Shown piece after piece: positions 37,223 to 46,255 of a stretch of 64,000 nt of DNA (position 1 is its first letter; every line of letters begins with the position of its first letter). Made by a program: the position numbers and the translations under genes. This stretch comes from Limnothrix sp. BL-A-16 (GTDB lineage Bacteria; Cyanobacteriota; Cyanobacteriia; CACIAM-69d), in the NCBI GenBank assembly GCA_041937175.2, contig CP166615.1, positions 3,392,001 to 3,456,000 on the forward strand, in the 5' to 3' direction. Below the pieces are notes generated by a model that searched no databases, was not told the DNA's origin, and saw only the letters and a list, made by a program, of their open reading frames with translations.

Positions 37223-37363
37223 GAACCTGTCGTCATTTTCTGGAATCAAGGGACAACGGTTAATTTTTCATCCCCTCATCGTCGTAACAAGGGGCTTAAG
37301 CCCCTTGTCCCCTAGGATCTCGTCACGATGACATCAGGGTTGCAGACGATTGAGCACAGGGCA
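37223..37363. mobile_element. MITE family A copy
   Basis: ta-gaacctgtcgtca... palindromic core ...cacagggca-ta. Confidence 0.7.
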
Positions 37364-37367
37364 TAAC

Positions 37368-38585
37368 CTAGGCGCTGCGGAGGGCCACGATCGGATCCAG
37401 CTTGGCCGCCTGTTGGGCTGGAATTACACCAAAAAAGAGACCAATCCCACCAGAAACACCCACAGCCACCCCGATCGCGGTGCTAGAGGGGGCCGCTTCC
37501 AAGTCCGTGGCCACGCTCACCAAGGCCAAGCCGCCAACCCCAACGGCCGTGCCGATCGCCCCGCCCAAACTGGCCAAAATCGTCGCTTCAATCACAAACT
37601 GCATCAAAATATCCCGCTGGGAAGCCCCGATCGCCTTGCGCAGCCCGATTTCTTGGGTGCGTTCCGCCACCGACACCAACATGATATTGGTGATGCCAAT
37701 GCCACCCACCAGCAGGGAAATACTGGCGATCGCCACCAACATCACCTGCAACGTGCCGGTGATTGCCCCCAGGGTGTTTTGCAAATCCTGCTGGTTACGA
37801 ACGGTGAAATCATCTTCACCCACAATTTTGTGTCGTCGGCGCAGTAGGTTTTCAATCTGGAATTGGGCGGCTCGCATCACCGTTTCATCCCGCGCCGACA
37901 GGGAAATATAACTAACACTGGTTCCATAGGGCGATCGACGACCCACCAACTGGTTCGCCATGGTGCGCAGCGGCAAAAACACGGTCATGTCCATATCCAT
38001 GCCGAAGCTGGATCCCTTGGGCTGCATCACCCCAATCACCTCTGCTCGCAGGTTGCGAACGCGCACGGACTGCCCGATCGGGTCTTGGCCGTTGAACAAT
38101 TGCCGCGCCACCTCAGATCCCAACACCACCACCCGTTGCACCCGTTGGCCATCGAGCTTGGAGATAAACCGGCCCCGATCGACCTGAAAATCGCGCACCT
38201 CGGTGTAGTCCGGCGTGGTGCCAATGACGGTGACGCTAGCGTTGCGGCCCCGGTAGCTCACCACTTCGTTCCCGGTCAGCTCCGGAGCCACTGCCACCAC
38301 GGTGGGTACTTCTGTAGAAATGGCCTCCGCGTCTTCCAGCACCAGGGTTTGTGGGGGCCAAAGGGGCCGCCGATCAGCCTCCGGGCTGCCGGGGCGAATA
38401 AACAATGTATTGGGGCCCAAGGATTGCACCTCGGCGGTCACAAACCGTTGGGCCCCCTCGCCCACCCCGATCGTGGCAATCACCGAAGCATTGCCAATCA
38501 CAATCCCCAGCATGGTGAGGCTGCTGCGCAATTTGTTGGCGGCCAAGGTGGCGATCGCCATTTTGAGGCTTTCCCAGAGGTTCAT
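37368..38585 (-). CDS. MacB/FtsX-like ABC permease
   Basis: NKLRSSLTMLGIVIG, ERTQEIGLRKAIGA, AAKLDPIVALR. Confidence 0.92.
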   Translation of the reverse strand: MNLWESLKMAIATLAANKLRSSLTMLGIVIGNASVIATIGVGEGAQRFVTAEVQSLGPNTLFIRPGSPEADRRPLWPPQTLVLEDAEAISTEVPTVVAVAPELTGNEVVSYRGRNASVTVIGTTPDYTEVRDFQVDRGRFISKLDGQRVQRVVVLGSEVARQLFNGQDPIGQSVRVRNLRAEVIGVMQPKGSSFGMDMDMTVFLPLRTMANQLVGRRSPYGTSVSYISLSARDETVMRAAQFQIENLLRRRHKIVGEDDFTVRNQQDLQNTLGAITGTLQVMLVAIASISLLVGGIGITNIMLVSVAERTQEIGLRKAIGASQRDILMQFVIEATILASLGGAIGTAVGVGGLALVSVATDLEAAPSSTAIGVAVGVSGGIGLFFGVIPAQQAAKLDPIVALRSA

Positions 38586-38670
38586 CGGTAAGGGCGATCG
38601 GGTGGGCGATCAATGAGGGGACTGGAATTTGCTGTCAGAATTAATCCTAGCGAACTCCAAAAACCCTGCG

Positions 38671-38889
38671 GCGATCGCTGAGCCTAGTAGCACGGCTGTT
38701 TTAATTCGATCGGTCAAGTTCAATGACTGTTGCTGCTACCCGATCGTTAGGCAGACAAGATCTTCAGCCCCCTGTCACCACGACTGACTCCGCAACATTG
38801 ACCCACGTGCTACGAGTTGCGGTCAAAATCCCTTAGATGACGGCATATCCCGCAGTGACAGAAGAACGCCCGTAATACCGGAGTTAGAC
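38671..38889 (+). repeat. Left arm copy 1, ending in attI-like site
   Basis: Homologous to 42235-42453; ends CCGTAAT-ACCGGA-GTTAGAC. Confidence 0.8.
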
Positions 38890-38978
38890 CGCACATGCTT
38901 GATAACACCCTGCGGAGGGGAGTTATTGTGTACATGCGGTCTAATACATAGTGGGGCTTCAGTAATGGAGGTTCGGTG

Positions 38979-39539
38979 ATGGTTAGTGCGTGGAATGAAA
39001 TCATTGCCCATTTGAAACACGAGCGCCTGTTCGAGTCATGTGAACTCAACGCGGGTGCGACATACTCGGAATTGGCACAACTCGAACAGCACATCGGTCA
39101 GTCACTTCCGCAAGAGCTTCATGACTTCTTGTCTGAGCACAACGGACAGAAAGTACATGCCAAGCTCGGTATCTATGTGGGCAGCGAATTGCTATCGACC
39201 GAAAGCATTTGTCAGCAGTGGGACGTTTGGCGCTCTATTGATGAGTCCACAATGAATGATGATTGTGCTGACTTCATGTCATCCAAACCGCCGGGTGCAG
39301 TAAAGCCGATGTACACCAATCGATGCTGGATTCCTATGACGCACGACTACGGCGGCAATCACGTCGGCTTAGACTTCGACCCAGGCCCAACCGGTGTCGT
39401 CGGCCAAGTCATTGCCTACGGACGGGATGAAGATGAGAAACGATTGCTAGCAAATTCATTCAAGGAGTTCCTTCCAATTCTGGTCGCAACGGTGCGAAAT
39501 GAAGACTGGTCTTTCGCCGATGAACTCCGAGGACAGTAG
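38979..39539 (+). CDS. SMI1/KNR4 (SUKH) immunity-family protein, gene cassette
   Basis: LNAGAT..ELAQLE...LP....HNGQ, WIPMTHDYGGNHVGLDFDPG..GQVI. Confidence 0.88.
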   Translation: MVSAWNEIIAHLKHERLFESCELNAGATYSELAQLEQHIGQSLPQELHDFLSEHNGQKVHAKLGIYVGSELLSTESICQQWDVWRSIDESTMNDDCADFMSSKPPGAVKPMYTNRCWIPMTHDYGGNHVGLDFDPGPTGVVGQVIAYGRDEDEKRLLANSFKEFLPILVATVRNEDWSFADELRGQ

Positions 39540-39560
39540 TAAATCGTCGAAACCAATGAC

Positions 39561-39656
39561 ACCCAACCCCTCCGTCAACCGGACCGCCTGCAAGCTGTGC
39601 TTGCAAGTTCGCTCCCGCCGGCCGGCGAAGGTGGAAGGCTACGTCCAACGTTCGCC
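39561..39656 (+). other. attC site 1
   Basis: ACCCAAC...GTTCGCC imperfect palindrome. Confidence 0.8.
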
Positions 39657-39715
39657 CACTAAATCACGGTCGCAATCAGTCGGTCGCCTGTCAATGATGA
39701 ATGATGTGAATACCC

Positions 39716-40156
39716 ATGTCGAAACCGAAACGCAACGATATCAGCATCGGAAAAGATAAATGGATCACGTTCGTTGAACTTGATGGCCAACAGACAAACG
39801 CGATCGAGTTGGACGAGATTCTGAAACCCATCGAACCATTCTTGAACTCGCTGGAAACTGAATGTGTCGCCGCCTGTTGCGGAGTTGATGCATACGCACT
39901 ATGGCCGGAAGACATTGCAGGTGCTGCGAAACAATCAGACATTCCCGACCTGTCGCGGTCGATTGAAACCGTACGACAACACATCATTGATTCGGGCGGG
40001 GATTCATTCGTGAGCCACCGCATGAACAACTTTTTCCACAGGCAGACTCTGTTACAGTTGATCGACCATATCGCTCAGTGCGTCGGTCATGCAGACGACG
40101 TGGGCGAACAAAGCGGTGAACCGGAGCCGCCGATCACGCGGAATTTGAAGTCATAG
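39716..40156 (+). CDS. Hypothetical cassette protein (DUF6331-like), reading into its attC
   Basis: LETECVAACCGVDAY motif. Confidence 0.75.
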   Translation: MSKPKRNDISIGKDKWITFVELDGQQTNAIELDEILKPIEPFLNSLETECVAACCGVDAYALWPEDIAGAAKQSDIPDLSRSIETVRQHIIDSGGDSFVSHRMNNFFHRQTLLQLIDHIAQCVGHADDVGEQSGEPEPPITRNLKS

Positions 40157-40193
40157 TTTCTTGGCGGCGGCCCGGTTACCGCAGCCGTTAGCC
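40103..40193 (+). other. attC site 2
   Basis: GGCGAAC-aaagcggtgaaccggagccgccg...ggcggcggcccggttaccgc-GTTAGCC. Confidence 0.88.
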
Positions 40194-40202
40194 GTCAAAT
40201 CC

Positions 40203-40640
40203 ATGAAAGCGATCGAGTACTCAGAAGCGGATAGACAAGGACTCGCACAAGCTCTCATGATTGCGAGATCGGGTGTCCGCTCGCACGTTTCTGAAGGTGA
40301 TGAAAAACTTCTCGGTTTCTTGCTCAGACACGGAGAATGCGATGTCGTGATTTCCGTCCTGCGTATTGAAGTGAGATTTTCATGGCTACAAAAGCGAAAA
40401 CCATCAACTTATTTCGGTGCGCTCGCGCCAGGACTTGTCACCCAATTGATGGAACTGGGGGGCATTGAATCCGTAAAGGATGCAATTGAGTTTACTGTTG
40501 GTCCTGGTAGCACTGGCTCGGATACCTACAAGTTTTTCTTCACCAAGAAATGGGTGCGGCTCACCTGTTCGGACGAAGCAATTCACATTCAAGTGCGCGA
40601 TCAACAACACGATCTGACTGCGCCGCTTCGATATGAATAA
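40203..40640 (+). CDS. Hypothetical cassette protein
   Basis: ORF fills the space between attC2 and attC3. Confidence 0.7.
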   Translation: MKAIEYSEADRQGLAQALMIARSGVRSHVSEGDEKLLGFLLRHGECDVVISVLRIEVRFSWLQKRKPSTYFGALAPGLVTQLMELGGIESVKDAIEFTVGPGSTGSDTYKFFFTKKWVRLTCSDEAIHIQVRDQQHDLTAPLRYE

Positions 40641-40684
40641 TCCCAGAAGCAAGTGACAACACTGACGCAATAAGACCGAAAGAC

Positions 40685-40775
40685 GGCTAACAAGGCGGCC
40701 AACCTGAGCGGTGGATCGGGCGGATTCTGAAATCAAAGGTTCTCGGTCGCCGCTGGGTTACCTTGGTCGTTAGCC
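40685..40775 (+). other. attC site 3
   Basis: GGCTAAC-aaggcggccaacctgagcgg...ccgctgggttacctt-GTTAGCC; related to attC2. Confidence 0.88.
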
Positions 40776-40831
40776 TGCAATCTTAGTTTCTGAATTAGCC
40801 TGAGAATGTAACTCGTGGCGAGGTTAGCAAT

Positions 40832-41653
40832 ATGAGTTTTGATTTCTCCACCGCCTCCGATTCGACAACAGATGCGTTGAGCTATTTTTCTGATCGGGGC
40901 GAAGATTACGAAAAGTACCGCCCGATTTATCCCGCTTCTGTGATCGATACAATTTTGTCAGGCTTGGGAAGTCCGACTCAGATTACTGCTGCTGATGTTG
41001 GCGCAGGAACAGGGATTGGCGCAAGATTGCTGGCAGATCGAGGGATTCAGGTTGTGGCGATCGAACCCAACGAAGACATGAGAACGGCAGCGACCCCGCA
41101 TGAAGGCGTAGAGTTTCTGGTCGGAACTGCCGAACAGACCCCTCTCAAGGATGCCTCAGTCGATTTAGTTACTTCGTTTCAAGCATTCCATTGGTTTGAT
41201 TTTGACAAAAGTCTCCAAGAGTTCCGCCGTATCCTCAAACCCAGTGGACGTTTAGCATTAACATGGAGCTTTTGGGATCAAGATGACCTTGTTTCCAAAG
41301 AATACACCCGCTTGGTTTTTGAAGCATCCAAAGATCGAGAGCACCAATCCCGATCCGAAATGCAACTGGAAACATGGTTCAAGAGCATCAGTTATCAACT
41401 GTTTTGGCAAGGGTTATGGTTGCCTTGCTTCACAAATTTAAAGCGACATCAGTTTGTGTCTAACCAATACTTAGATTCTCTAGGGCTAGTCGGTTTAGCC
41501 CGAAGTCAGGGATTTACAGCGTCTGAAGGAAGAAATTTAGAAAAACTTGTATCAGACTTAGCCGTATTTCATCAACGTTTTTGCGATCACCAAGGTTTGG
41601 TAAGATTAATTTATCGCACACACTTGTATACCGCAACTTCCAACTGTCGTTAA
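40832..41653 (+). CDS. Class I SAM-dependent methyltransferase (cassette)
   Basis: [24 protein letters not shown]. Confidence 0.9.
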
Positions 41654-41666
41654 AGTACTACTCATT

Positions 41667-42056
41667 ATGGATATAAAACCTTTACAAAAGAAAGCTAAAT
41701 CACGAGGTATTGCTATTGATGGGCAAGGTGGTTACGAGCGACATATTTTGCTGTGTACTGGATTACGTCAAAGTGGGGACACTTGTTGTCCCGCTGAAGA
41801 AGGTGCTAAAACCTGGAAATATTTGGGCAGGCGATTGAAACAACTTGCTCAAGATGGACATAATATTTATCGTACAGAGACAGAATGTTTAATGTTTTGT
41901 CGCAGTGGTCCCCTTGCCGTTGTCTACCCCGAAGGAACTTGGTACTGTGAAGTTACTCCAGAGGTTTGTGAACGTATTATTCAAGAACATTTGCTGGAAG
42001 GACAACCAGTTGAAGAATTCATTTTTGCTTGTAATCCATTGTTGAAAGACCCGTAA
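41667..42056 (+). CDS. Thioredoxin-like [2Fe-2S] ferredoxin (same cassette)
   Basis: HILLC...CC...[20 protein letters not shown]. Confidence 0.9.
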
Positions 42057-42071
42057 ACACACTCCCATACA

Positions 42072-42159
42072 GGCTAACAACTTCGCTGCGCCGGAACGCC
42101 GTAATCTAGTCGGTTGAGTTGCAAAGTTTGTCTGCGTCCGGTGAGCTTGGTCGTTAGAC
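42072..42159 (+). other. attC site 4
   Basis: GGCTAAC...gctgcgccggaacgc...gcgtccggtgagc...GTTAGAC. Confidence 0.85.
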
Positions 42160-42453
42160 GACAAAAGGCTCTGGGTATTTTTAAGGCAAAATATAATTTT
42201 GGTTCGGGTGTTCTTTTGAGAAGCGGTCATCCTAGCGATCGCTGAGCCTAGTAGCGCGGCTGTTTTAATTCGATCGGTCAAGTCCAATGACTGTTGCTGC
42301 TACCCGATCGGTAGGGAGCGAAGGTATTAATCTCCTGATCACGACGACTGACTCCGCAACGTTGACCTATGCGCTACGAGTTGCGGTCAAAGTCCCGTAG
42401 ATGACGGTATATTCCGCAGCAACAGAAGAATGCCCATAATATCAGAATTAGAC
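42153..42453 (+). repeat. Right arm copy 1 fused at HIP1 (42235-42242) to left arm copy 2
   Basis: 42153-42242 matches 45089-45178; 42235-42453 matches 38671-38889. Confidence 0.85.
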
Positions 42454-42496
42454 CGCTAGATTTTGGGCTAGGACATCAAGTATTTCAACTTAAATT

Positions 42497-42973
42497 ATGG
42501 AAAGGTTTCAAGATACAGGAGACACAATTCAATCATTTCAAGATCAGGTTCTGGTGCGCTGTCCCCATTGTGAGTCATGTGCTGTTGTGCGTTGCACCAC
42601 TCCTGAAAATTTCCGATTTTCTCCTCGCAGGTTTTCCTGCAAAGCCTGTGGCTCCTACAAAGATTGGGCTGAAAGCACAATTTCAAGAACTTGGAAAAAT
42701 GAGCCACCAGTAGATGATTATTTTCATTACCCTTTATGGTTGCAAGCGCCTTGTTGTGGCCAGACGCTTTGGGCTTACAATTTTGAACATTTAGATTTTC
42801 TTGAAGCATTTGTCAGCGCAAGATTGCGAGAAAGCCAACGCGACGAGAATGATCTTTGGTCGAATCGCAGCCTATTTTCACGCTTGCCGCGATGGATTCA
42901 ATCAGCTAAGAACCGAGAAACTATTTTGAAAGTTATCAGCAAAATTCGTCAATCAAATGAAAGTATTTTGTAG
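42497..42973 (+). CDS. Hypothetical zinc-ribbon-like protein (cassette)
   Basis: VRCPHC, CKACG, PLWLQAPCCGQTLWAYNFEHL, RLPRWI. Confidence 0.8.
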   Translation: MERFQDTGDTIQSFQDQVLVRCPHCESCAVVRCTTPENFRFSPRRFSCKACGSYKDWAESTISRTWKNEPPVDDYFHYPLWLQAPCCGQTLWAYNFEHLDFLEAFVSARLRESQRDENDLWSNRSLFSRLPRWIQSAKNRETILKVISKIRQSNESIL

Positions 42974-42986
42974 CGATACTTCCTAA

Positions 42987-43117
42987 GAGAATGTCTGAGA
43001 AGTATCTTTCAGTACGGGCCAAGCATCAATTATCGTGGGGACAAGGGGCTTAAGCCCCTTATTTGCGTTGACCGCTGGAGCATATGGAGTAGCAATTTTA
43101 GCTTTTCAGACATCCTC
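42987..43117. mobile_element. MITE family B copy
   Basis: taa-gagaatgtctgagaag...cttttcagacatcctc-taa, 131 bp. Confidence 0.85.
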
Positions 43118-43333
43118 TAAGAACGCTCTAATAACGATGATTATTCTAAAATTGTTGACAAAGTGGCATGATCTAAGAATTCTAGTGCGGCGGGCTATCG
43201 AAGATTGATTTGCAGCAAACATAACTTATGCTAAACACAAAAAAGCTTACAGTCGCTGACTAGAAACGTTAAATTTCGCAAAGTCAATGGATAAAAAACT
43301 ATGGCACACTAAAACTATCTTTGAGGAATATTC

Positions 43334-44314
43334 ATGAAAGCAATTGTATGTGCCAAGTATGGATCTCCCGATGCTATGCAGCTTCAAGAAGTAGAAAAAC
43401 CTACTCCTAAAGCAAACGAGGTGCTAATTAAAATCTATGCAACAACAGTAACATCAGCAGATATCCGCATCCGAAAAGCTGACCCATTCCCCGTAAGATT
43501 TTTCTACGGTTTCGCAAGACCTAAAAACAACACGATACTCGGATCGGAGCTAGCCGGAGAGATTGAAGCAGTTGGTGAAAATGTAAAACAATTCAAAGCA
43601 GGCGACAGAGTATTTGCTGGTGCAGGAACCAGTTTTGGTGCAAATGCTGAGTATATTTGTCTGCCTGAAGCAGGGGCAGTTGCGATCAAGCCTACCAATA
43701 TGACCTATGAGGAAGCTGCGGCCATTCCTTTTGGGGCAACAACCGCATTGATCTTCCTGAGAGATAAGGGAAAGATTCAGAGCGGGCAGGAAGTTTTGAT
43801 CTATGGCGCTTCTGGGGCAGTGGGGATGGCTGCCGTGCAGCTTGCCAAATTTTTTGGCGCACAAGTGACCGGATTGTGTAGTACAGCGAAATTAGAATTG
43901 GTGAAATCTCTCGGATCTGATCACGTTATTGACTATACCAAAGAGGATTTCACTCAAAACGGTAAGACCTATGACATCATTTTTGACACCAGTGGCAAAA
44001 GTCCATTTTCAGGCTGTCTCAACTCGCTAAAAAATAATGGCATCTATCTTAGAGCTGTTCATATCAATCTATTGCCGATCCTTCGAGGGCTGTGGACTTC
44101 AATGATCAGCAGCAAGAAAGTCATCGGTGGGGTGGCGATCGAGCGTAAAGCAGATCTGATTTTTCTGAAAGAGTTAATCGAAATGGGCAAGATGAAATCG
44201 GTCATCGACAGGCGTTATTCACTGGAGCAGACTGCCGAAGCTCATAGGTATGTTGAACAAGGACACAAGAAAGGGAATGTCGTCATTATTGTGGAGCAAA
44301 GCAACAAAGTCTAA
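43334..44314 (+). CDS. NAD(P)-dependent MDR alcohol dehydrogenase-like protein (cassette)
   Basis: [28 protein letters not shown]; stop codon lies in the attC R'' box. Confidence 0.9.
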
Positions 44315-44404
44315 CAACGCTCTGCACCAGAATGTTCAATAACATTCAATAGGGTCTATTGATTTACAAAACCTGCCTGCGCTTGGTGAGTGCAACCATT
44401 GGGC
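44309..44404 (+). other. attC site 5 (degenerate; GTT mutated to ATT)
   Basis: GTCTAAC...ctctgcacca...tggtgag...ATTGGGC; related to attC4. Confidence 0.7.
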
Positions 44405-44472
44405 GAACAAGAATCTTTGAAGAAAGTCGTAAATTGTCGCACTGGAAGCTTTTTATATTTTGGGAGAATTTG

Positions 44473-45030
44473 GTGCAACCAAAGTTGACGGATAGGCTTG
44501 TATTGAGGCCGTTCTCGGAGAGAGATGCCGAGGGATTATTTCGCTATCTGTCGAGAAAGCAAGTGAATTGCTTCGCTTCAGACAGAATTGAGACAATGGA
44601 TCAAGCAATAAAGGTTGTGGAGGAACGACAGAGAACTGATAAGTTCATTGCTGTTTGTCTTAAAGAGACTGATGAATTGATCGGAGACCTGTTTCTCCAG
44701 AAAGAGGAGCCAGACACTTACAGTGTGGGTTGGAATTTTAACGCAGACTATCAGGGAAAAGGATATGCTCTTGAGAGCGCTAAGGCGCTGCTAGACTATC
44801 TTTTTAAGGATAGAGGTGCAAGAAGAATCTACGCTTATGTGGAAGAAGACAATATTCGCTCTCAGAAGGTCTGTGAACGCCTTGGTATGAGAAAGGAAGG
44901 ATGTTTCAAGGAATTCATCACGTTCATCAATAATGATGACGGAACGCCGAGATACGAAAATACAATGCAATTTGCAATATTAAGCAAAGAATGGGATCCA
45001 ACGAAAGACATCGATATAGAGAAAAAATAG
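44473..45030 (+). CDS. GNAT RimJ/RimL-type acetyltransferase (cassette)
   Basis: YQGKGYA, NIRSQKVCERLGMRKEG; GTG start after GGAGA. Confidence 0.88.
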   Translation: MQPKLTDRLVLRPFSERDAEGLFRYLSRKQVNCFASDRIETMDQAIKVVEERQRTDKFIAVCLKETDELIGDLFLQKEEPDTYSVGWNFNADYQGKGYALESAKALLDYLFKDRGARRIYAYVEEDNIRSQKVCERLGMRKEGCFKEFITFINNDDGTPRYENTMQFAILSKEWDPTKDIDIEKK

Positions 45031-45032
45031 CC

Positions 45033-45095
45033 GCCCAACATTGACTTTAACTTGATGATTTTGGAACAAAATTGCAAGTTAAATCAGCGTTAGAC
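45033..45095 (+). other. attC site 6 (63 bp)
   Basis: GCCCAAC-attgactttaacttg...caagttaaatca-GTTAGAC. Confidence 0.88.
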
Positions 45096-45178
45096 TAAAA
45101 AAGGTTCTGAGTATTCTTGAGGGAGAATATAATTTTGGCTTGGGTGTTCTCCTGAGAAGCTGTAATCCTAGCGATCGC
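45089..45178 (+). repeat. Right arm copy 2, ending in HIP1
   Basis: Homologous to 42153-42242, with conserved TATAAT. Confidence 0.8.
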
Positions 45179-45256
45179 CTGCCCTAGTTGCCGCCGCGAT
45201 CGCACCCGATCGACTGTGCTTGACTCACCGCGCTGACTGCTCGCCCTGTCTACCCC

Positions 45257-46255
45257 ATGACCTTCTTTAATCTGCGCCCCGACTGGCAACTGCGCGATCG
45301 CGAAGCAACGGATCCAGCCCTGTTTCTCAATCGCCGCCGCTTTTTGCAATCCCTCGCCGGGTTCAGCATTGCCGGTAGTGTTTCGTCGCTGACGGGTTGC
45401 CAAAATACACCACCCGGCGAGCTGGAAGCGGCTCCACCCCCCGGCCCCACCACCATGCGATCGCCCTTTGTTGGGGTGCAGCGCAATTCCCAATTTGCCG
45501 ATCCGCAGCGAGCCGTCACGCCCCAAGACTTGGCTGGTCGCTACAACAACTTCTATGAGTTTGGCGGAACAAAGGACATTGCCCAGCGGGCCCAACGGTT
45601 GCCCACCAATCCCTGGACCGTGGAAGTGTCTGGATTGGTCAAACAGCCTAAAACTTGGGCGATCGAGGATTTAATCAAAGCCTTTGAGATCGAAGAACGC
45701 ATCTATCGGTTTCGCTGTGTCGAAGCCTGGGCGATGGTTGTGCCCTGGCTCGGGTTTCCGATGCGCAAACTGATCGAAGCGGTCGATCCCTTGCCCGATG
45801 CTAAATTCGTCCGCTTCACCTCCTACTACAACAAAGACATCACGATCGGCCCCGGTTGGTCTCTCCGGGAGTTGCCTTGGCCCTACACCGAAGGCTTGCG
45901 GATTGAGGAAATGGCCAATGAGCTAGCCTTTTTCGCGGTGGGTAATTACGGCCAGATTTTGCCGAAGCAGCATGGCGCGCCAATTCGGGCCGTCTTGCCT
46001 TGGAAGTACGGCTTCAAGGGGGCTAAGTCGATCGTCAAAATTGAATTTTTGCCCCGTCAGCCCCTGACCTTTTGGAACACTCTGGCCCCTGATGAATATG
46101 GCTTTGAGGCCAATGTGGATCCCCTTGTGCCTCATCCCCGTTGGTCTCAGGCCACGGAGCGGTTATTGGGGTCGGGCCCGCCGCTGGCCTGGAAAACGGT
46201 TCCCACCCGTCCCTACAACGGCTATGGAAAATGGGTTTCTGGTCTTTATGCCTAG
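45257..46255 (+). CDS. msrP: Protein-methionine-sulfoxide reductase catalytic subunit
   Basis: Tat motif NRRRFL; YNNFYEFG, ERIYRFRCVEAW, PWKYGFK. Confidence 0.95.
   Translation: MTFFNLRPDWQLRDREATDPALFLNRRRFLQSLAGFSIAGSVSSLTGCQNTPPGELEAAPPPGPTTMRSPFVGVQRNSQFADPQRAVTPQDLAGRYNNFYEFGGTKDIAQRAQRLPTNPWTVEVSGLVKQPKTWAIEDLIKAFEIEERIYRFRCVEAWAMVVPWLGFPMRKLIEAVDPLPDAKFVRFTSYYNKDITIGPGWSLRELPWPYTEGLRIEEMANELAFFAVGNYGQILPKQHGAPIRAVLPWKYGFKGAKSIVKIEFLPRQPLTFWNTLAPDEYGFEANVDPLVPHPRWSQATERLLGSGPPLAWKTVPTRPYNGYGKWVSGLYA

Follow-up and report, generated by a model that had tools for sequence, protein, structure and literature searches.

The window analysed here, a stretch of 64,000 nucleotides of the chromosome of Limnothrix sp. 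BL-A-16 (CP166615.1, positions 3,392,001 to 3,456,000; genome label G000), contains two integron cassette arrays placed back to back and joined at a copy of the octamer HIP1 (highly iterated palindrome 1). The tandem lies between a host gene for a MacB/FtsX-type ABC permease, assigned by protein family match (37368-38585, minus strand), and a host msrP-like molybdopterin oxidoreductase gene (45257-46255, plus strand; Pfam Oxidored_molyb, msrP being the name given in the original prediction). These flanks, the two modules with different cassettes and the positions of their arms were confirmed as predicted. Right arms, repeat A copies, attI sites and cassettes are all on the plus strand. The left arms L1 (38671-38892) and L2 (42235-42456) are 222-nt copies, 86% alike, and both begin at the HIP1 sequence GCGATCGC (38671 and 42235). 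The right arms R1 (42153-42242) and R2 (45089-45178) are identical at 76 of 90 positions; each opens with the GTTAGAC that belongs to the last attC (42153 and 45089), contains TATAAT (42192 and 45128) and ends at HIP1 (42235 and 45171). HIP1 a (38671-38678), where the L1/L2 homology starts, is host DNA 5 nt to the left of a repeat of the miniature inverted-repeat transposable element (MITE) kind, and HIP1 b (45171-45178) closes R2, a 90-nt flank upstream of msrP that is 88/90 identical in the sister species (genome G002). R has no second locus in G000 and was found, among five relatives searched, in G002 only. It is most simply the msrP-side flank, of which R1 is a diverged copy.

The junction between R1 and L2 is the HIP1 at 42235-42242. 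Sequence on the left side of this octamer is R and sequence on the right side is L, and so the crossover falls within the octamer. In the original prediction three HIP1 sites bound the two modules. The chromosome contains 5209 HIP1 sites, one per about 870 bp, and because HIP1 is so dense the outer two need no special explanation; the central junction alone is informative. The same R1-HIP1-L2 junction is present in G002. Since the junction is common to the two species and their R1 arms group together against the R2 arms (8 sites for, 1 against), one HIP1 event is enough, and the R1-L2 junction apparently arose once. A metagenome pattern scan for the three HIP1 contexts gave six matches, none of them homologous to the locus.

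The left arm is a composite of 13 host bases, a MITE-like copy and an attI. In the species-representative genomes, a scan with a 19-nt pattern gave 25 loci, and at one of them (L089) 143 nt separate a homologous platform of about 140 nt from the start of a full-length IntI, the integron integrase (TIGR02249, 461 bits). All 16 aligned homologues are conserved as far as CTAATA(C/A)ATAG-T and diverge beyond it; therefore, the crossover of attI 1 is placed between G38951 and T38952, at GGTCTAATACATAG|T (38938-38952), the point where the homologues switch sequence. Homology thus shows 38817-38952 to be, as far as sequence comparison can tell, a genuine attI of cyanobacterial type with a G/TT-type crossover. 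The attI1-like site that had been proposed at 38873-38889 lies inside it and was rejected as the crossover, being an upstream element of attI with the true crossover 62 nt further on; the L arms are nevertheless diverged homologues with attI, as claimed. attI 1 reads GTG at 38951-38953, where the homologues read GTT. attI 2 (42381-42456) is cut down to its first 76 nt, as L2 ends at 42456 and does not include the crossover. The second L arm of G002 (L024, 1030-1216), with a rearranged MITE, has kept the final 34 nt of attI with the crossover, which complement the part surviving in L2 of G000.

The proposal of an attI platform of some 300 bp therefore stands as to an attI with cassettes and no integrase, but not as to a single platform, since L2 lacks the crossover and 38684-38816 is a dispersed MITE-like repeat. 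Two copies of this repeat A, recognised by genome-wide matches, are in the array (38684-38816, with ends CTAGTAGC...GCTACGAG, and 42248-42380). The family is about 146 bp long and non-coding, has terminal inverted repeats CTAGTAGC/GCTACTAG and gives 45 matches in the genome, 24 of them full length, which are the properties of a MITE. A HIP1 is found at most 25 nt upstream of 4 of the 45 copies, two of these four being L1 and L2. Judging from L089 and from L103 of G002, the MITE copy sits at the point which in intact integrons is marked by a CTAG just ahead of the start of intI.

Module 1 contains four cassettes. The first (38952-39656) carries an SMI1/KNR4 (SUKH) gene (38976-39539) and attC 39561-39656; the second (39651-40193), a DUF6331 gene (39716-40156) and attC 40103-40193; the third (40188-40775), a 145-aa gene of no family (40203-40640) and attC 40685-40775; and the fourth (40770-42159), with homologues in many cyanobacterial genomes, an S-adenosylmethionine (SAM) methyltransferase (40832-41653) followed by a 2Fe-2S ferredoxin-like gene (41667-42056) and attC 42072-42159. 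Module 2 starts (42497-43274) with a 158-aa gene of no family (42497-42973) and a weak attC (43219-43274), and continues with a cassette for a zinc-binding dehydrogenase family protein (43269-44404; gene 43334-44314, attC 44309-44404) and another for a GNAT acetyltransferase (44399-45095; gene 44476-45030, attC 45033-45095). Repeat B (42979-43122, and also around 37230-37310), a dispersed family with more than 100 matches, sits between the 158-aa gene and its attC, and it also interrupts an attC in L103. No cassette is common to the two modules. Their cassette DNA (49% and 42% G+C, without a single HIP1) looks foreign beside flanks of 56-57% G+C with about one HIP1 per kb. Folding of the seven candidate attC gave z values from -3.9 to +0.5, below -2 in three of seven, some of the input boundaries being a few bases off, and in cassettes 2, 3 and 4 the R'' end is the exact complement of the R' end (7/7). 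A rough attC pattern scan of the whole genome was dropped, as it recovered only one of the seven window sites. With at least two candidate attC and no intI nearby, the locus falls among the attC clusters that have no integron integrase (CALINs).

In the flanks, the stretch 38641-38688 repeats TAATCCTAGCGA and GCGATCGC-N4-CCTAG of the right end (45162-45188), which might be the decayed remains of a duplication made by the original insertion, or else a promoter element on the minus strand. A promoter scan gave 13 sites against 8.6 expected; the TATAAT of R was absent from the sites listed, as was TTGATA...TATTGT inside attI, a candidate with a 19-nt spacer for the Pc promoter that would drive the cassettes. 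The single match of an Rfam scan of 38000-46000 is one by chance.

The absence of intI near the array had been predicted, and it extends to the whole genome: neither an IntI above the TIGR02249 cut-off nor a fragment of one was found anywhere in G000. An intI beside attI, as a complete chromosomal integron would have, is thus missing, and IntI above the cut-off was found in none of the eight genomes of the family (G000 included) versus 15 of 41 in the whole sample. Cassettes at the locus have nevertheless kept changing since the MITE arrived. G002 has the same order of MITE, attI, R1, HIP1, second L arm and R2, on two contigs linked by an insertion sequence with an 8-bp target duplication, but with other cassettes; its homology to G000 ends at 38952, begins again with the GTT of R1 and changes over once more at 43265-43268. 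In the metagenome run X1, one contig is without exactly the GNAT cassette (joint 44396>45088). In the same run the attC before that cassette (44398) reads GTT, where the window has ATT and the site may be inactivated. The boundaries of these changes are exact G/TT points. As there is no resident IntI, we infer that the enzyme acts in trans from another locus, in strains that retain the gene; the original prediction had invoked an integrase in trans, and the exact cassette changes point in the same direction. G002 retains a decayed 5' piece of intI beside attI at L103, the first 28 residues of which are identical (28/28) to those of the full-length integrase P0007 and two further members of its cluster in public assemblies. 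P0007, from a cluster of six, is a full-length IntI with every catalytic motif intact. The closest full-length integrases of the clade (P0001-P0007 and P0137-P0141) are on contigs of 1-9 kb, which may reflect fragmentation or small elements. Among possible mobile sources of a cognate IntI, the best plasmid match reached 24% coverage at 75% identity, and 47 viral loci had identities of at most 62% and the platform in none.

Whole modules also vary in nature. Four sequencing runs were compared: the metagenomes X1 and X4, X10, which was too thin, and the clonal isolate X13. In X13, which has 23 differences from the window, one contig covers 37270-43020 at even depth and with no break in L, and in X1 the R1-HIP1-L2 junction is crossed by one contig. 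The depth of module 1 relative to its flank was 8.8 versus 24.9 in X1 and about 31 versus 85 in X4, or about one third, and contigs of both runs end at 38719 and 42286. In a simulated graph of 31-mers from the tandem and a single-module allele, a crossover within 38693-38719 predicts ends at 38719 and 42286, and one at HIP1 predicts 38691 and 42264. Therefore, recent gain or loss of module 1 appears, on this indirect evidence, to have used L homology outside HIP1, in a stretch of 27 nt identical between L1 and L2 (38693-38719) that includes CGATCG (38707-38712). The alleles at 38692/38720 are A/T in the first L, G/C in the second and A/C in the single L. The earlier proposal that whole arrays are mobile through HIP1 is thereby borne out as regards modules gained and lost in natural populations, but not as regards HIP1 as their working ends. 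In two other genomes the locus is incomplete: the permease and msrP genes of G003 lie on separate contigs that lack the arms, and in G001 the msrP contig begins inside the gene and the permease region was not found.

The platform is not confined to this locus. A profile search of G000 gave about ten attI-like platforms at six loci, some of them weak; copies elsewhere come from single-sequence searches and self-BLAST, by which distant ones may be undercounted. Outside the window, the platforms of G000 have no MITE directly upstream. At L062 (9200-16700; G000:C1, about 1.601-1.609 Mb), four phosphoketolase 3' ends of varying length alternate with attI and cargo in a stack of three attI copies with methyltransferase and nuclease-like cargo, and one of the duplicated pieces ends inside HIP1. 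Stacks with such variable flank duplications are found at L129, L131 and L088 as well, and in G002 the 3' end of a peptidase gene is repeated behind a cassette, beginning at GGGCGATCG. Degenerate platforms of G000 with short flank duplications, one of which ends inside HIP1, are L066 (6900-11650, behind a peptidase gene) and L065 (7240-9180, near 2.557 Mb). Across several cyanobacterial lineages, 17 loci have attI together with 5' intI stubs that differ in length. Such platforms, of which one genome often has several, are found at L068, L072, L073, L077, L078, L081-L083, L085, L087, L091, L092, L099 and L101-L103. At L068 (1222-3154), a two-gene cassette, the second gene PIN-like by eye, is duplicated along with its attC and 90 nt of flank, and each copy ends at HIP1. 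G003 has two dispersed platforms that are homologous from a HIP1 on, with similar right arms ending at or near HIP1 (none of 2000 shuffles was as good). That both had been cut at HIP1 was rejected, as the stub of L072 continues 31 nt beyond it. In L072 and L073 the HIP1 is within intI codons 10-13, apparently by substitution, and this is the exact point at which one of the stubs is cut.

We think it reasonably probable that the tandem is an integrase-less integron, alleles of which fused once at a HIP1 microhomology and which has since varied through RecA-type exchange in L and through the action of IntI in trans. The starting point would be a chromosomal integron with attI between the permease and msrP genes, of which a remnant is left. 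A MITE-like repeat would have entered the CTAG between attI and the start of intI, and intI would have been lost, while cassettes went on turning over at G/TT with IntI supplied from another locus. Two alleles would then have fused once at HIP1, by homology-facilitated illegitimate recombination (HFIR) during transformation or by unequal exchange. Thereafter module 1 may have been gained, lost or swapped through homologous recombination between L arms. MITEs, HFIR and the polyploidy of cyanobacteria serve here as general background concepts. What an array of modules built by HFIR should contain appears to be present: arms 86% alike, an 8-bp HIP1 junction, and comEC and dprA, both intact in the genome, from which competence is predicted. 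In this scheme HIP1 would be a favoured microhomology for rare junctions and not the att site of a mobile element. It looks like a favoured, not a required, junction: in a list that excludes ends at attI crossovers and apparent same-event ends in two genomes, a HIP1 core is touched by 6 of the 22 duplication ends (5 of 21 if the window junction is left out) against a background of 4-9% (P 0.001-0.03, values that overstate the significance, as the list was made by hand, the ends are BLAST-defined and the loci are related), while HIP1 cores are not at 21 of the 24 left ends of platforms, nor at 16 of the 22 duplication ends.

Besides the overstated P values, several points weigh against this scheme. 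HIP1 is not enriched at platform left ends (3/24, P 0.1-0.35). The mapping of the crossover to L uses contig ends of two metagenomes (two of the four runs) and an assumed word length of 31, and the same pattern could result from a point mutation or gene conversion that struck 38692/42256 later. Junction and module gain or loss are indirect reconstructions from contigs, and integration of a HIP1-closed circle in L through RecA would produce the identical sequence. P0007, a sequence from metagenome assemblies, is at most a candidate for the enzyme acting in trans. attI 1, with its GTG, and attI 2, lacking the crossover, may be inactive now. Furthermore, in the natural transformation of class 1 integrons, as far as the available text of that study goes, cassettes were replaced in 76 of 76 transformants, without stacking (PMC3410848).

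The single origin of the junction could also go back to a one-off event within the chromosome, a tandem duplication from one HIP1 site to another, with divergence in place, all cassettes replaced by IntI acting in trans and no foreign allele. The density of HIP1 makes it the commonest 8-bp microhomology and G/TT cassette turnover is shown, yet the modules share zero cassettes, and the first L of G002 is nearer to L2 of G000 (87%) than to L1 over the right half of the MITE. Moreover, between the species R1 is 80/90 versus 88/90 identical for R2, which suggests allele traffic, and the flank pieces stacked at other loci are diverged and vary in length. We consider this duplication in place doubtful.

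A distributed integron, in which attI platforms are copied, without an integrase, to many loci and served by an IntI that only some strains keep, and whole arrays move as HIP1-closed circles that re-enter and stack via L, is in our opinion unlikely. If true, HIP1 would serve throughout the genome as a working site at which arrays are joined and exchanged.

The original prediction itself was of a transferable unit, HIP1-L-cassettes-R, excised as a HIP1-closed circle and stacking when it re-enters, either at HIP1 or in L through RecA, and we regard it as quite improbable. The R-HIP1-L junction is exactly as such a circle would have it, the L alleles at 38692/38720 fit single-crossover circle integration in L, the G003 platform pair and the duplication at L068 up to HIP1 are as it would predict, and HIP1 has been linked to site-specific recombination (PMC4390886). 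Nevertheless, one junction origin covers both species, R is at no other locus in the six genomes searched, and among the 15 of 17 joints listed there is no joint from R back to L and no empty site. Neither a circle nor an empty site was found in 41 genomes, one metagenome scan and the four runs, in which contigs drop rare forms. The intI stub of L072 extends past a HIP1 that is itself inside intI codons, and most platform left ends (21/24) and duplication ends (16/22) are not at HIP1 cores. An element using HIP1 as its att site should gain and lose modules within HIP1, which the indirect evidence from X1 and X4 places in L instead, and the same unit with HIP1 ends should recur at several loci, which it does not in the genomes searched. 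A dedicated HIP1-bounded unit is therefore not supported: L is a MITE-attI composite, R is confined to a single locus and other platforms and stacks mostly have non-HIP1 ends. Arms elsewhere with ends not at HIP1, which had been named as the finding that would speak against it, exist for L.

Much less probable again is a composite transposon in which the MITE-like repeats mobilise attI with the cassettes, HIP1 being incidental. Each module does open with a copy of a 45-copy family, but the right end of module 2 is without MITE, other platforms of G000 have none directly upstream, and the duplicated unit takes in 13 host bases to the left of the MITE and 90 bases of R; because of this position of the junction the composite is largely refuted. 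Finally, although populations do contain alleles without module 1, an assembly chimera of two strains, which the original prediction had named as a possible refutation, has next to no probability given the even contig of the independent isolate X13, the X1 contig across the junction and the same junction in G002.

CALINs, with several attC and no intI nearby, are in half of the cases found in genomes without intI, and integrase loss or rearrangement by insertion sequences has been proposed for them (2016, PMC4889954); the attI of non-clinical integrons was not searchable in that survey. The window locus is like a CALIN in its several candidate attC and missing intI. It differs from those of the survey in retaining an identifiable attI, which is doubled in tandem with host flank and found at several dispersed loci (PMC4889954). 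In Xanthomonas, conserved loci hold CALINs and chromosomal integrons whose intI is inactivated, and decay of intI there largely accompanies stable arrays (PMC12444791). Lineage-wide decay of intI, arrays at fixed chromosomal positions and assumed mobilisation in trans are common to both cases; unlike there, here cassettes and whole modules differ both from one species to the other and within a species, and the platform too occurs as a stack.

In the immunity arrays of the Vibrio type VI secretion system and in orphan Rhs modules, a homologous anchor and an illegitimate junction add a module while the old one is kept, plain homologous replacement being commoner (Kirchberger et al. 2017, PMC5361080). 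Our locus resembles them in mode of growth, but its cargo is an integron array and its junction a HIP1 octamer. Class 1 integrons exchange whole arrays via conserved flanks in natural transformation, depending on RecA and not on the integrase (Domingues et al. 2012, PMC3410848); unlike the replacement without accumulation described there, both stacking and loss are seen here. In mobile integrons, attI-flanked and delta-attI cassettes occur, with pieces of class 1 and class 2 attI used as cassette ends by IntI1 (PMC12901181). As in these, there is more than one attI per array, but here a platform of about 290 bp is repeated together with host flank.

A dedicated HIP1 recombinase is not indicated by our data. 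Recombination linked to HIP1 was reportedly described by Robinson in 1997 and Akiyama in 1998, as cited in later work. In the sources seen by us, HIP1 gives precise junctions and promotes transformation and recombination (Elhai 2015, PMC4390886; Kamoku and Nielsen, 10.1101/2024.09.10.611283; PMC13756078). This evidence comes mainly from cloned sequences and plasmids, in contrast to the natural chromosomal junction in an integron array described here. A literature search, with most subscription papers and supplements outside it, found no work that joins HIP1 with integrons or describes multiple attI platforms in such terms.

In summary, the locus is a variant of known orphan integrons, and its stacked orphan attI arrays, the signs of turnover without a resident integrase and the base-precise HIP1 junction are real and testable. 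A cyanobacterial attI beyond the reach of standard search tools is now defined and is found dispersed, with 5' intI stubs, in several lineages. The natural base-precise junction and the measurable HIP1 bias of duplication ends make the role of HIP1 testable, and the locus could serve as an example from nature on which the function of HIP1 is tested, with defined substrates used in transformation. An integron without an integrase in its genome can keep evolving at two levels, single cassettes with G/TT precision and whole arrays by recombination between arms.

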